10,326 nucleotides of DNA from a virus: the UHGV virus genome UHGV-0157652; one strand, 5' to 3'. Under the pieces are notes generated by a model, which had not been told where the DNA came from, made no database searches, and was given only the letters and a program-made list of their open reading frames with translations. A program made the translations under genes and the position numbers. Each line of letters starts with the position of its first letter. Position 1 is the stretch's first letter. Below are positions 760 through 4,302 of the stretch, piece by piece.

Positions 760-960
760 ATGACAACTGACGATATCGAAAGCTACTTCGGCAGTATTGA
801 GAAAGTTGCTGCTTTTTTCGGCATAACAACTGAAGCCGTTTATCAGTGGCGAAACCGTCCGGGCCAGTTAATTCCAAAAGGACGTGCAGCAGAAGCTGCA
901 TATAGAACTTGCGGACGGTTGCCATTTAAACCTGAGCTTTATGAAAAATCTAATGGATAA
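760..960 (+). CDS. cro: Cro-like / YdaS-like small HTH transcriptional regulator
   Basis: 66-aa ORF with strong SD; HTH-like core (VAAFFGITTEAVYQWRNR); sits directly rightward of and divergent from the repressor, as cro does in lambdoid phages. Confidence 0.75.
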   Translation: MTTDDIESYFGSIEKVAAFFGITTEAVYQWRNRPGQLIPKGRAAEAAYRTCGRLPFKPELYEKSNG

Positions 961-1549
961 ATCGATTAACAGAAACCACAGAACGATGAGGCTAACCGTG
1001 GGTAAGCATCACTGGAAAGTAGAAAAACAGCCTGAGTGGTACGTGAAAGCTGTCAGAAAAACTATCGCAGCGTTGCCGGGTGGTTACGCTGAAGCAGCTG
1101 ACTGGCTGGATGTAACAGAAAACGCATTATTTAACCGCCTTCGTGCCGATGGCGATCAGATTTTCCCGCTGGGATGGGCAATGATTTTGCAACGTGCTGG
1201 TGGAACTCACTTCATTGCTGACGCTGTGGCGCAGTCTGCAAATGGCGTCTTTGTGTCTCTTCCTGACGTCGAGGATGTGGACAACGCCGATATTAACCAG
1301 CGCCTGCTGGAAGTCATTGAACAGATTGGCAGTTATTCCAGACAGATTCGTTCGGCAATCGAAGACGGTGTGGTGGAACCGCATGAGAAGACAGCAATTA
1401 ACGACGAGCTGTATCTCTCAATTTCGAAGCTGCAGGAGCATGCAGCACTGGTCTACAAAATCTTTTGCATTTCAGAAAGTAATGACGCCCGCGAGTGTGC
1501 AGCTCCGGGCGCCGTGGCGTGTCGTGACTGTGGAGAAACTAACGCATGA
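941..1549 (+). CDS. CII-like phage regulatory protein (start uncertain: in-frame candidates GTG 884, ATG 941, 953, 986)
   Basis: Long ORF immediately after cro; the segment [47 protein letters not shown] resembles, from memory, the HTH region of 186-CII-type (Phage_CP76-like) regulators. Stop TGA 1547-1549 overlaps the next ATG (ATGA). No database search run. Confidence 0.5.
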
Positions 1550-1884
1550 ACAGTTTAACAACACACTACCGTCGCTCGCAACTGATTGCGCTTCCTGTAC
1601 CGGGTGGAAAAGCGAAGGTGGAGTATTGCTATGCAGTTAATGTACCAGGTGACAGGGAAATTGTAACCCACAGCTTTGCTGAGTGGGCTGTGGGTGATTT
1701 CAACCGGCAGAAGGAGACAGTCCTTTGCGACAAGTTAACCGCTGGTTCAAAGATCACTACGGAGTGCCCGTCAGAGTCATTCGTTGGGAGCCGGAAACAC
1801 AACGAGTTATCTACCTCCGCGAAGGCTATGAGCATGAGTGCTTCAGCCCGCTCGAACAGTTTCGTCGTAAATTCAGGGAAATAG
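1546..1884 (+). CDS. Hypothetical protein (N-terminal ~60 aa look coding; C-terminal ~50 aa are Ser-rich low-complexity, possibly out of the true frame)
   Basis: ATG at 1546 is coupled to the preceding stop (ATGA). The translation downstream of ~1725 degenerates to [38 protein letters not shown], while a different frame is protein-like over the same DNA. Confidence 0.4.
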
Positions 1885-1904
1885 AGGTCGGTCATGAGCA
1901 CTAA
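1725..1904 (+). CDS. Alternative small ORF (59 aa, TTG start), or the frameshifted C-terminal part of the 1546 gene
   Basis: AAGGAG (1711-1716) lies 8 nt upstream of TTG 1725. Translation [59 protein letters not shown] is far more protein-like than the overlapping frame. Stop TAA 1902-1904 overlaps the O-like start (1894) by 11 nt. Absent from the ORF track because it lacks an ATG. Confidence 0.3.
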
Positions 1905-2835
1905 ATTAACCGGCTATGTATGGGATGGTTGCGCTGCATCAGGCATGAAATTATCCAGCGTGGCAATTATGGCCCGCCTGGCTGATTTCAGTAATGACGA
2001 AGGTGTGTGCTGGCCATCAATTGAAACTATTGCCCGTCAGATTGGCGCGGGGATGAGTACCGTCAGGACGGCTATCGCACGGCTGGAAGCAGAAGGCTGG
2101 TTAACGCGTAAGGCGCGTCGCCAGGGTAACCGCAATGCGTCGAATGTTTATCAGCTTAACGTTGCGAAGCTTCAGGCAGCGGCATTTTCTCAACTGTCAG
2201 ATTCTGACCCGTCAAAATCTGACGCATCAAAATCTGACCCGTCAAAATTTGATGCGTCGAAATCTGGCAAAAAAGCGGGTTTTCACCCGTCAGAATCTGG
2301 CGGGGATCCGTCAGTAAAATCAAAACATGATCCGTCAGATAAAAAACCTTCTCGTCCGGACGCTTCGCAACCGGACACGCAGACGGATGAACAGGATTTT
2401 TTAACTCGCCATCCTGATGCGGTTGTATTCAGCCCTAAAAAGCGCCAGTGGGGAACGCAGGATGATTTGACCTGCGCACAGTGGCTCTGGAAAAAAATCA
2501 TCGCCCTGTACGAGCAAGCCGCCGAATGTGACGGCGAGGTGGTTCGTCCCAAAGAACCGAACTGGACAGCCTGGGCAAACGAAATTCGCCTGATGTGTGT
2601 GCAGGATGGTCGTACTCACAAACAAATCTGCGAGATGTACAGCCGCGTCAGCCGCGATCCGTTCTGGTGCCGTAACGTGCTCAGCCCGTCGAAGTTGCGG
2701 GAAAAATGGGATGAGCTTTCCCTGCGCTTATCACCGTCCGTCAGCACGTACACCGAAAAACGCGAAGACCCGTACTTCAAATCCAGTTACGACAACGTGG
2801 ACTACAGCCAGATCCCGGCAGGATTCAGGGGGTGA
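1894..2835 (+). CDS. Replication initiator, O-like (N-terminal HTH DNA-binding domain, repeat-encoding linker, C-terminal domain)
   Basis: 313 aa; SD GAGGTCGG upstream. N-terminal region (SVAIMARLADFSNDEGVCWPSIETIARQIGAGMSTVRTAIARLEAEGWL) is typical of phage replication-initiator HTH domains. Internal tandem DNA repeats begin about 100 codons in, the same relative position as ori-lambda inside lambda O. Confidence 0.8.
   Translation: MSTKLTGYVWDGCAASGMKLSSVAIMARLADFSNDEGVCWPSIETIARQIGAGMSTVRTAIARLEAEGWLTRKARRQGNRNASNVYQLNVAKLQAAAFSQLSDSDPSKSDASKSDPSKFDASKSGKKAGFHPSESGGDPSVKSKHDPSDKKPSRPDASQPDTQTDEQDFLTRHPDAVVFSPKKRQWGTQDDLTCAQWLWKKIIALYEQAAECDGEVVRPKEPNWTAWANEIRLMCVQDGRTHKQICEMYSRVSRDPFWCRNVLSPSKLREKWDELSLRLSPSVSTYTEKREDPYFKSSYDNVDYSQIPAGFRG
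2196..2347. repeat. Iteron-like direct repeats (candidate replication origin) inside the O-like gene
   Basis: Five tandem 15-bp units at 2196, 2211, 2226, 2241 and 2256 (consensus about GTCAAAATCTGACCC), plus degenerate copies CCGTCAGAATCTGG (2288-2301), CCGTCAGTAAAATC (2309-2322), CCGTCAGATAAAAAAC (2332-2347), followed by a short AT-rich stretch near 2394-2405. The repeats are in frame and encode an SKSDx pentapeptide repeat. Confidence 0.6.
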
Positions 2836-2837
2836 TC

Positions 2838-3326
2838 ATGAGTCTTTTGAATGAAGTTCAGAAATTCATTGAAGCCCATCCGGGATGTACTTCCGGAGAC
2901 ATTGCGGATGCTTTTGCAGGTTACTCACGGCAGCGCGTTCTGCAGTCAGCAAGCAAGTTACGTCAGAGTGGGCGTGTGGCTCACCGTTGTGAAGGAGATA
3001 CACGCAGACATTTCCCGCGCCTGACTGAGAGAGCGCAGGAACCGGAACCACAACCAGTTCGAGAAACCAGACCTGTGCGCAATTTCTATGTCGGCACTAA
3101 CGATCCACGGGTGATTTTGTGCCTGACCCGCCAGGCTGAAGAACTGGAGTCCAGGGGCTTATACCGTCGTGCTGCAACCGTGTGGATGGCGGCATTCCGT
3201 GAAAGCCACTCCCAGCCAGAACGAAACAATTTTCTGGCGCGTCGTGAGCGGTGCTTACGGAAAAGCAGCAAGCGCGCTGCATCGGGTGAAGAGTGGTATC
3301 TGTCAGGGAATTACGTGGGGGCTTAA
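2838..3326 (+). CDS. PerC/Pch-like transcriptional regulator candidate with an N-terminal winged-helix-like domain
   Basis: ATG 2838 with SD AGGGGG 6 nt upstream (alternative GTG 2832, 2 nt after the O stop codon). C-terminal segment AEELESRGLYRRAATVWMAAFRESHSQPERNNFLARRERCLRK matches my recollection of the PerC-family core; not verified by search. Stop TAA 3324-3326 overlaps the next ATG (TAATG). Confidence 0.5.
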   Translation: MSLLNEVQKFIEAHPGCTSGDIADAFAGYSRQRVLQSASKLRQSGRVAHRCEGDTRRHFPRLTERAQEPEPQPVRETRPVRNFYVGTNDPRVILCLTRQAEELESRGLYRRAATVWMAAFRESHSQPERNNFLARRERCLRKSSKRAASGEEWYLSGNYVGA

Positions 3327-3979
3327 TGAGTAATAAATATTGCCAGGCGCTGGTGGAACTGCGGAACAAACCAGCCCATGAACTGAAGGAAGTGGGCGAT
3401 CAGTGGCGCACGCCGGACAACATTTTCTGGGGAATTAACACCCTGTTTGGCCCGTTTGTTCTGGATCTGTTTACTGACGGTGATAACGCCAAATGTGCCG
3501 CGTATTACACGGCGGAAGATAACGCGCTGGCGCATGACTGGTCAGAACGTCTTGCGGAGCTTAAAGGTGCTGCCTTTGGTAATCCCCCATACAGCCGCGC
3601 CAGTCAGCATGAGGGGCAATACATCACCGGCATGCGTTACATCATGAAACATGCCGGTGCCATGCGTGATAAGGGCGGGCGCTATGTTTTCCTGATCAAA
3701 GCTGCCACCAGCGAAGTGTGGTGGCCGGAAGATGCGGACCATATTGCTTTTATTCGCGGGCGTATTGGTTTTGAACTGCCTGCCTGGTTTATCCCGAAGG
3801 ATGAGAAGCAGGTGCCGACAGGCGCTTTCTTCGCTGGTGCTATTGCTGTTTTCGACAAGACCTGGAAGGGACCGGCAATCAGCTACATCGGGCGCGATGA
3901 ACTTGAGGCATGTGGTGAAGCCTTTTTGGTGCAGGTTCGCCAGCAGGCGGAAAAACTGGTCAGGGAGATGGCGGCATGA
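3326..3979 (+). CDS. Phage Dam-type N6-adenine DNA methyltransferase (orphan)
   Basis: 217 aa from ATG 3326, translationally coupled to the upstream gene. Carries the catalytic NPPY motif (AFGNPPYS) and an N-terminal WRTP segment that I recall as typical of phage Dam-family proteins. No adjacent endonuclease gene. Confidence 0.8.
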   Translation: MSNKYCQALVELRNKPAHELKEVGDQWRTPDNIFWGINTLFGPFVLDLFTDGDNAKCAAYYTAEDNALAHDWSERLAELKGAAFGNPPYSRASQHEGQYITGMRYIMKHAGAMRDKGGRYVFLIKAATSEVWWPEDADHIAFIRGRIGFELPAWFIPKDEKQVPTGAFFAGAIAVFDKTWKGPAISYIGRDELEACGEAFLVQVRQQAEKLVREMAA

Positions 3980-4302
3980 CGACGTTAACTCAATGCCAGC
4001 AGCAGGTGCTGGATATGCTGATTTCTTACCAGAAAGAGCGTGGCTTTCCGCCAACCAATCAGGAGGTGGCAACCATGCTGGGATACCGTTCAGTGAATGC
4101 AGCGGTAGAGCATCTTCGTGCACTGGAGAAAAAAGGCGTCATCACGATAAAGCGTGGCGTGGCCCGGGGGATAACGCTTCATACCGCGGTGAAGGACGAC
4201 GACAGCGAGGCGGTCGGGATTATCCGCGCACTGCTTGCCGGTGAGGAAAACGCCAGGCTGCGTGCAGCCCACTGGTTACATGAGAGAGGCCTGAAAGTAT
4301 GA
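3976..4302 (+). CDS. LexA-type N-terminal DNA-binding domain protein (no peptidase domain)
   Basis: 108 aa; LTQCQQQVLDMLISYQKERGFPPTNQEVATMLGYRSVNAAVEHLRALEKKGVITIKRGVARGITL follows the LexA DNA-binding winged-helix pattern. ATGA overlap with the methyltransferase stop and with the next gene start. Confidence 0.8.
   Translation: MTTLTQCQQQVLDMLISYQKERGFPPTNQEVATMLGYRSVNAAVEHLRALEKKGVITIKRGVARGITLHTAVKDDDSEAVGIIRALLAGEENARLRAAHWLHERGLKV

Follow-up and report, generated by a model that had tools for sequence, protein, structure and literature searches.

Out-of-frame overlap of the ymfM and DUF4222 reading frames upstream of the replication gene of a lambdoid prophage

Lambda Rz/Rz1 and P2 LysB/LysC are pairs of genes that overlap out of frame, and lambda Rz and Rz1 are both constrained as proteins and act together as a spanin. 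Here we describe an overlap between ymfM, a reading frame of 112 amino acids (aa), and a 59-aa gene of the DUF4222 family in UHGV virus genome UHGV-0157652. The 10,326 nucleotides (nt) that were analyzed, numbered from the first letter of the strand given, are referred to as the window. The window represents the immunity and replication region of a lambdoid prophage of the e14/SfII type. As in Rz/Rz1, more than 100 nt of one strand are shared by two genes in different frames, the inner of which has a ribosome-binding site of its own. Unlike in Rz/Rz1, sequence constraint within the overlap is seen in a single frame, and the other frame appears to be constrained only to stay open. The overlap occupies the position that the cII-O interval has in the early rightward operon of lambda, between a cII-type regulator and the replication initiator. 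We know of no protein gene in that interval of lambda, whereas in this phage group it holds a gene for the N-terminal domain (N-domain) of YmfM, often DUF4222, and sometimes an antirepressor gene.

Each of the two frames has a described counterpart. The ymfM gene (b1148) of the K-12 prophage e14 has the same 339-nt length, is ∼98% identical in DNA and lies in the same place between ymfL and the replication gene; the window ymfM is an allele of b1148, and there is essentially no difference between them. The only studied member of DUF4222 is RgdR (ECs1581, 99 aa), a regulator encoded by prophage CP-933C/OI-51 of enterohaemorrhagic Escherichia coli (EHEC) O157:H7 that stimulates LEE1, represses motility and binds DNA non-specifically, and whose Arg-Gly-Asp (RGD) tripeptide was reported to be important for activity (Flockhart et al. 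2012, PMC3378721). The window protein shares the Pfam domain with RgdR, at 41% identity over 49 aa, and RgdR is longer, with N- and C-terminal extensions. The RgdR gene overlaps a P4-type primase gene by 4 nt, and the window DUF4222 gene is likewise upstream of, and overlaps, a replication gene; RgdR is found beside the primase in a P4-like element, the window gene in a lambdoid immunity region. In the window protein QVNRWF stands at the position aligned with the RGD, and because the tripeptide is absent the protein was classified as a member of the family and not as an RgdR orthologue.

Two reading frames between ymfL and the replication gene

A preliminary description of the window, made from its letters and a list of open reading frames (ORFs), had noted a conflict between frames at 1546–1884 and 1725–1904, the second preceded by AAGGAG and overlapping the start of the O-like gene by 11 nt. 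All of this agrees with the sequence (Table 1). Two readings had been offered, one gene carrying a frameshift or a sequencing error, and two overlapping genes. We consider it likely that ymfM and DUF4222 are two separately translated genes sharing positions 1725–1884, a judgment that takes in the whole explanation proposed here. The long form of ymfM would arise where the gene for the N-domain lies directly against DUF4222 and its reading continues into the +1 frame of the latter. The DUF4222 protein would be initiated independently at TTG 1725 behind AAGGAG, and would most likely serve the replication module as a small accessory protein or regulator. The tail of YmfM would carry ribosomes to the start of the replication gene. 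For both proteins we infer the biochemical function.

Table 1. Positions of the reading frames, signals and neighboring genes in the window
Feature	Position	Strand	Details
cI/LexA-like repressor	36–662	−	
cro	760–960		
ymfL, CII/CP76-like regulator	998–1549	+	Pfam Phage_CP76 E 1.2e-13; NCBIfam YmfL equivalog E 1.9e-49
GGAG, Shine-Dalgarno-like motif	1532–1535	+	10 nt 5′ of ymfM ATG; read from sequence
ymfM	1546–1884	+	ATG start, TAG stop, 112 aa
Conserved YmfM N-domain, residues 1–52	1546–1701	+	Homologue alignment, profile search, dN/dS
AAGGAG, Shine-Dalgarno of DUF4222 gene	1712–1717	+	7-nt spacer to TTG 1725
DUF4222/RgdR-family gene	1725–1904	+	TTG start, TAA stop, 59 aa; PF13973; PGAP CDS (coding sequence)
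Out-of-frame ymfM/DUF4222 overlap	1725–1884	+	160 nt
TAGAGG	1882–1887	+	ymfM stop (1882–1884) overlapping GAGG Shine-Dalgarno (1884–1887) of replication gene
O-like replication initiator	1894–2835	+	Pfam HTH_36 E 4.3e-11

The arrangement is common. Window positions 1400–2000 were matched in 2,701 of 5,426 complete E. coli genomes (412 records were ≥99% identical), and among the matches listed the best were 100% identical across all 601 nt. The segment was also matched in phages such as SfII, SfIV and vB_EcoM-689R6. K-12 e14 and phage SfII have the identical geometry of a 339-nt and a 180-nt ORF, and the mean column identity in a DNA alignment of K-12, SfII and the window was 98%. Recurrence of this DNA in thousands of assemblies made independently, among them that of K-12 with its 339-nt ORF in e14, rules out a sequencing error.

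The 112-aa frame corresponds to b1148 of K-12 e14, to SfII_40 and to phrog_1170 (E 3.8e-70, positions 1–112 of 112). It is labeled “cell division inhibitor YmfM” in the K-12 reference and hypothetical protein in SfII, and it matched no family in Pfam or NCBIfam. In an alignment, residues 1–51 are near-invariant in homologues down to ∼55% identity and conservation collapses beyond them, which bears out the earlier remark that the frame looks coding for about 60 codons and then becomes Ser-rich. When a profile built from residues 1–61 was run against 1.84 billion representatives, it yielded a family of 76 cluster representatives with the approximate motif M-N/S-x-L-T...P-Q-L/F-R-x-L-P-x-x-G-G...Y...G...N-H-S-F-x-E-W-A-V-G-D. 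The family has two architectures, a long one of 111–117 aa and a stand-alone one of 58–68 aa. In the window protein the tail comprises residues 61–112, is Ser/Thr-rich and is encoded in the +1 frame of DUF4222. The lengths of YmfM fall mostly at 108, 111 and 112 aa. A PDB sequence search with YmfM found nothing.

Some database forms of YmfM are truncated (76–105 aa). Point nonsense mutations were rejected as their origin; they are rearrangement junctions or small deletions. A resemblance to the N-domain in the third frame of locus L014 was likewise set aside as coincidental, the homologous frame there being the ATG frame, which has the motifs QFRCLP and YVERL in common with P0145, P0148, P0161 and P0180. 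In an Atlantibacter prophage (L009:1501–1730) a deletion removed DUF4222 and left a 75-aa YmfM with a GTG start, now joined to a different replication gene.

The 59-aa frame, which is −1 relative to ymfM and whose last 11 nt also belong to the O-like gene (ATG 1894), matches PF13973 with 67.3 bits against a cut-off of 27 (E 8.6e-19, profile positions 3–52 of 53). The gene that the preliminary description suspected is thus real, with a full-length DUF4222 domain and strong purifying selection; it is not unannotated, since the protein is WP_001250269.1, “DUF4222 domain-containing protein”, from the Prokaryotic Genome Annotation Pipeline (PGAP) of RefSeq, and phrog_1343 in PHROGs. In other genera an ATG stands at the position homologous to TTG 1725, and a GGAG-like motif precedes that ATG in five other genus-level loci. 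The AlphaFold2 model of the 59-aa protein has a predicted local distance difference test (pLDDT) score of 85. Fold searches with it returned generic SH3, Tudor and KOW barrels only, and the protein is predicted to be a small SH3/Tudor-like β-barrel. Its likeness in the model to the RNA-polymerase-binding Tudor domains of UvrD, PcrA, CarD and Mfd should be considered a lead and not a result. A PDB sequence search with the DUF4222 protein found nothing.

Two further observations concern DUF4222. The codon for Trp7 (window 1743–1745) is a nonsense codon in two unrelated loci, TGA in Phytobacter L007 (1680–1870) and TAG in E. coli L034 (1680–1860), with the ymfM frame open in both; DUF4222 may be dispensable or counter-selected in some resident prophages. 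In L105/L106:1675–1923 a profile search detected a DUF4222-like ORF just upstream of an HTH_36 replication gene. Gene finders leave it uncalled and call an 84-aa ORF and an opposite-strand 96-aa ORF instead, so that it looks like another annotation gap.

Annotation of the overlap is split. PGAP-annotated E. coli genomes carry the DUF4222 gene only and leave 1550–1724 empty, the K-12 reference and phage SfII carry ymfM only, and a few phage records carry both frames. Each annotation pipeline therefore misses one conserved gene. Note that both genes have been annotated before, in one record or another; the new points are the conserved overlap, the evidence that it is maintained, the geometry of the stop and the Shine-Dalgarno sequence, and the question of how SfiC is attributed.

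The two genes also occur apart. In L021 and L022 the gene order is CP76, a short YmfM N-domain gene (67–68 aa), a KilA-N/ANT antirepressor gene, DUF4222 (59 aa) and the replication gene, so that a gene of ∼700 bp sits between the two. In L108/L109 a 61-aa N-domain ORF stops directly before the DUF4222 ATG, and in L103/L104 a 59-aa N-domain ORF is followed by a KilA-N gene and DUF4222 is absent. In L021 and L108, DUF4222 and the replication gene have 4 nt in common. Because these contexts separate them, the YmfM N-domain gene and DUF4222 are independent genes.

Selection was assessed for region A (1546–1724, ymfM upstream of the overlap) and region B (the overlap, 1725–1884) from ratios of non-synonymous to synonymous substitution (dN/dS). 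Pooled by the method of Nei and Gojobori over 158 loci fetched by DUF4222 similarity, a sample unbiased for region A, dN/dS was 0.34 for the ymfM frame of region A, 0.09 for the DUF4222 frame of region B and 1.88 for the ymfM frame of region B. Pairwise values for five genus-level loci (the window for E. coli, Phytobacter, Atlantibacter, Raoultella and Citrobacter) ranged from 0.2 to 0.67, from 0.05 to 0.19 and from 0.94 to 10.9, respectively. The proportion of synonymous differences (pS) in the DUF4222 frame was 0.55–0.78 between these loci, which is close to saturation. Among 52 E. coli haplotypes, variants in region B were 22 synonymous and 14 non-synonymous in the DUF4222 frame, and 5 synonymous and 31 non-synonymous in the ymfM frame; all common E. 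coli polymorphisms in this region are synonymous for DUF4222 and non-synonymous for ymfM. In region A, 18 of 18 variants were synonymous in ymfM, a count that is biased due to the sample having been picked for identical N-domains. The N-domain and DUF4222 are protein-coding and under purifying selection, the amino-acid sequence of the YmfM tail is unconstrained, and the N-domain is the sole part of ymfM under selection at the amino-acid level.

The 3′ end of ymfM and the attribution of SfiC

The ymfM gene and the replication gene are in the same frame (1546 and 1894 are both 1 mod 3), and the replication-gene ATG lies 12 nt past the ymfM stop in nearly all of ∼250 loci. The hexamer in which the stop and the Shine-Dalgarno sequence overlap occurs as TAGAGG, TAAAGG or TAAGGG, and the stop is formed from the rare codons ATA or TTA of the DUF4222 frame. 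The 12-nt spacing is constant across at least four unrelated replication genes, even though the stop of DUF4222 shifts between +14 and +53 nt from that of ymfM. At its other end ymfM is joined to ymfL, whose stop codon TGA (1547–1549) shares bases with the ymfM ATG to give an ATGA junction.

From this geometry, translation of ymfL, ymfM and the replication gene may be coupled. Ribosomes would end ymfM at the TAG at 1882–1884, inside the Shine-Dalgarno sequence of the replication gene, and termination-reinitiation would couple translation of that gene to the ymfL-ymfM message. The proposed chain would run from ymfL (CII-like) through ymfM to the replication initiator.

The start of the replication gene is also a mosaic joint, marked by CATGAGC (window 1888–1900; junctions in L011, L111, L037 and L008), where a common ATG serves as the start of at least four unrelated replication genes. 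The C-terminus of DUF4222 changes with the replication gene, with 59, 61 and 70 aa among the forms seen.

The preliminary description had called the block one of unknown function. This is outdated for the 112-aa frame, which is ymfM and was reported as the SfiC division inhibitor (bioRxiv 10.1101/2020.11.19.390815). The identity of SfiC is an old question in the study of SOS-induced filamentation. The “ymfM open reading frame” in pBAD24 is reported to give filamentation with loss of Z (FtsZ) rings, and SfiC was assigned partly by way of a ymfM deletion (Ansari et al., bioRxiv 10.1101/2020.11.19.390815). The text that was read makes no mention of an embedded DUF4222 ORF. By the ORF coordinates, the cloned ymfM ORF would also hold the AAGGAG motif, the TTG and 53 of the 59 DUF4222 codons, that is, the entire Pfam domain, and a ymfM deletion would remove both genes. 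On these coordinates the published clone and deletion do not distinguish between the overlapping products, and a literature search found no later paper that separates the effects of YmfM and DUF4222. Of the two proteins, the 112-aa YmfM is the likelier division inhibitor. We regard it as unlikely, though worth bearing in mind, that the SfiC block is due wholly or partly to the DUF4222 protein or needs both proteins; the YmfM tail would then be a sequence-free “ribosome track”, held open only to bring ribosomes to the start of the replication gene, and not a part of the protein.

Openness of the YmfM tail and competing explanations

In at least 253 loci from several enterobacterial genera, the ymfM frame continues across DUF4222. 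It is stop-free through DUF4222 in 160 of 160 loci fetched by DUF4222 similarity; all of these have the YmfM N-domain upstream, in the +1 frame in 159 and in frame with DUF4222 in one. The preliminary description had raised the case that the 112-aa frame is conserved at full length together with its Ser-rich tail and the alternative frame is not. The 112-aa frame is kept in length and openness but not in the sequence of its tail, and the alternative frame is strongly conserved.

Openness was evaluated by a recoding simulation in which the DUF4222 protein was held fixed and its synonymous codons were redrawn, individually for each of six genus-level loci. The probability of an open ymfM frame was 0.017–0.15 using E. 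coli codon usage and 0.012–0.061 using local usage, and all six natural loci are open. Codon choice was compared at Val, Leu and Ile codons (xTN), which create TAA or TGA in the ymfM frame if they end in A or G and stand before A. Such endings were used in 0 of 14 distinct site-codon observations before A versus 11 of 31 at safe sites (Fisher p 0.0098). DUF4222 genes without a ymfM overlap (L021 and L022), which served as a control, have several stops in the corresponding frame. We propose that the tail frame is kept free of stops while its amino-acid sequence drifts freely. The locus would then illustrate cleanly how selection on an overlap can act on the protein sequence of one frame and, in the other, on openness alone.

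Several points weigh against the reading of two genes with a maintained tail. A stop-free run of 52 codons is not unusual singly, being found in 10–24% of comparable windows of neighboring genes, and because of this the evidence must come from comparison between loci. That comparison assumes lineages that are effectively independent at synonymous sites; the lineages are related, and the combined significance should be considered approximate. As the short forms of YmfM demonstrate, the domain itself can do without the tail. The constant position of the ymfM stop is inherited and did not evolve repeatedly, and some stop must persist near 1882 in any case because ymfM is in frame with the replication gene. 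The AlphaFold2 model of the 112-aa YmfM, from an alignment of 13 sequences, has a pLDDT of 41 and is uninformative. Independent initiation at TTG 1725 and the coupling are both proposed from the letters of the locus only. The architecture is also not universal, since in two lineages (L160, 736–1104, and P0028) the first ∼41 residues of the N-domain are in frame with DUF4222, in ORFs of 114–123 aa; two sequence lineages probably do not represent a sequencing error.

Some of these points serve an alternative for the tail, namely that only the first ∼60 codons of ymfM matter and the remaining 52 are functionless read-through, open due to ancestry and the codon habits of DUF4222. The stand-alone forms of 58–68 aa and the frequency of open runs of this length in single sequences fit it, as do a tail-frame dN/dS of ∼1 or higher (0.94–10.9) and a DUF4222 pS that is not depressed. 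Set against these are that every overlapped locus examined is open despite DUF4222 synonymous sites near saturation, that the probability of openness per locus under recoding is 0.01–0.15, that stop-forming codons are missing just where they would give rise to stops and yet are used at safe sites, and that several stops are present in that frame of non-overlapped DUF4222 genes. On balance, a tail without function is improbable.

A programmed −1 ribosomal frameshift could in principle fuse the YmfM N-domain to DUF4222, as in lambda G/GT or dnaX. DUF4222 does lie in the −1 frame relative to ymfM, and the rare in-frame variants show that fusion is tolerated. No slippery heptamer had been seen in the preliminary description, and indeed the ymfM frame contains no X XXY YYZ, the sole homopolymer run of at least four being AAAA at 1608. 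The RNA fold around the DUF4222 start is not significant (z −1.09). The relation of the frames varies, being the same frame with a stop between in L108 and interrupted by a whole gene in L021 and L022, and DUF4222 has a strong Shine-Dalgarno sequence of its own. We therefore hold frameshifting to be very improbable, and favor separate initiation of the two genes.

A single ancestral N-domain–DUF4222 gene broken by a frameshift mutation or sequencing error near 1698–1725 scarcely merits belief: it can call on the in-frame ORFs of L160 and P0028 and on 118–119-aa “fused” proteins in public assemblies (P0001–P0005), which are also what a search with the fused translation proposed in the preliminary description finds, but the latter are near-identical proteins from one contig each that switch frame at distinct points, as expected of assembly errors, the listed best matches in complete E. 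coli genomes are 100% identical and the 412 records mentioned above at least 99%, one geometry holds across genera, DUF4222 spans the whole Pfam profile without an N-terminal extension and is provided in every lineage with a Shine-Dalgarno sequence and a start of its own, and elsewhere the two parts are separate, with the ∼700-bp gene between them in L021 and L022. P0052, examined as a natural fusion, was rejected; it is a single metagenome contig, and its close relatives L014–L019 have the usual two-frame layout.

Neighboring genes in the window

Positions of the flanking immunity and replication genes are given in Table 1. Where ymfL starts is ambiguous. With GTG 884, the start of the longest ORF, ymfL would reach 77 nt into cro, and RefSeq places the start at 998; in the long form that starts at GTG 884, alignment to the YmfL family profile does not begin before residue 54. 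No Rfam family was matched anywhere in the window. A promoter and terminator scan of the window gave nothing above chance, and therefore no oop-like antisense unit.

In phage records the O-like gene is named “O protein family” or “DNA replication protein O”. Within it, at 2182–2304, are six tandem copies of a TCAAAATCTGAC(C/G)C(G/A)-like unit in a 15-nt register, which encode the DPSKSDASKSDPSKFDASKS stretch of the protein. In their sequence these repeats look like origin iterons located within the initiator gene, as in lambda.

The segment 3′ of the replication gene (2832–4302) encodes a PerC-family regulator, an N6-adenine methyltransferase and a small LexA-like DNA-binding protein. These genes are densely packed, with overlaps of 4 nt to 34 nt. 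They are followed by a RusA gene, which is frameshifted in the closest RefSeq genome.

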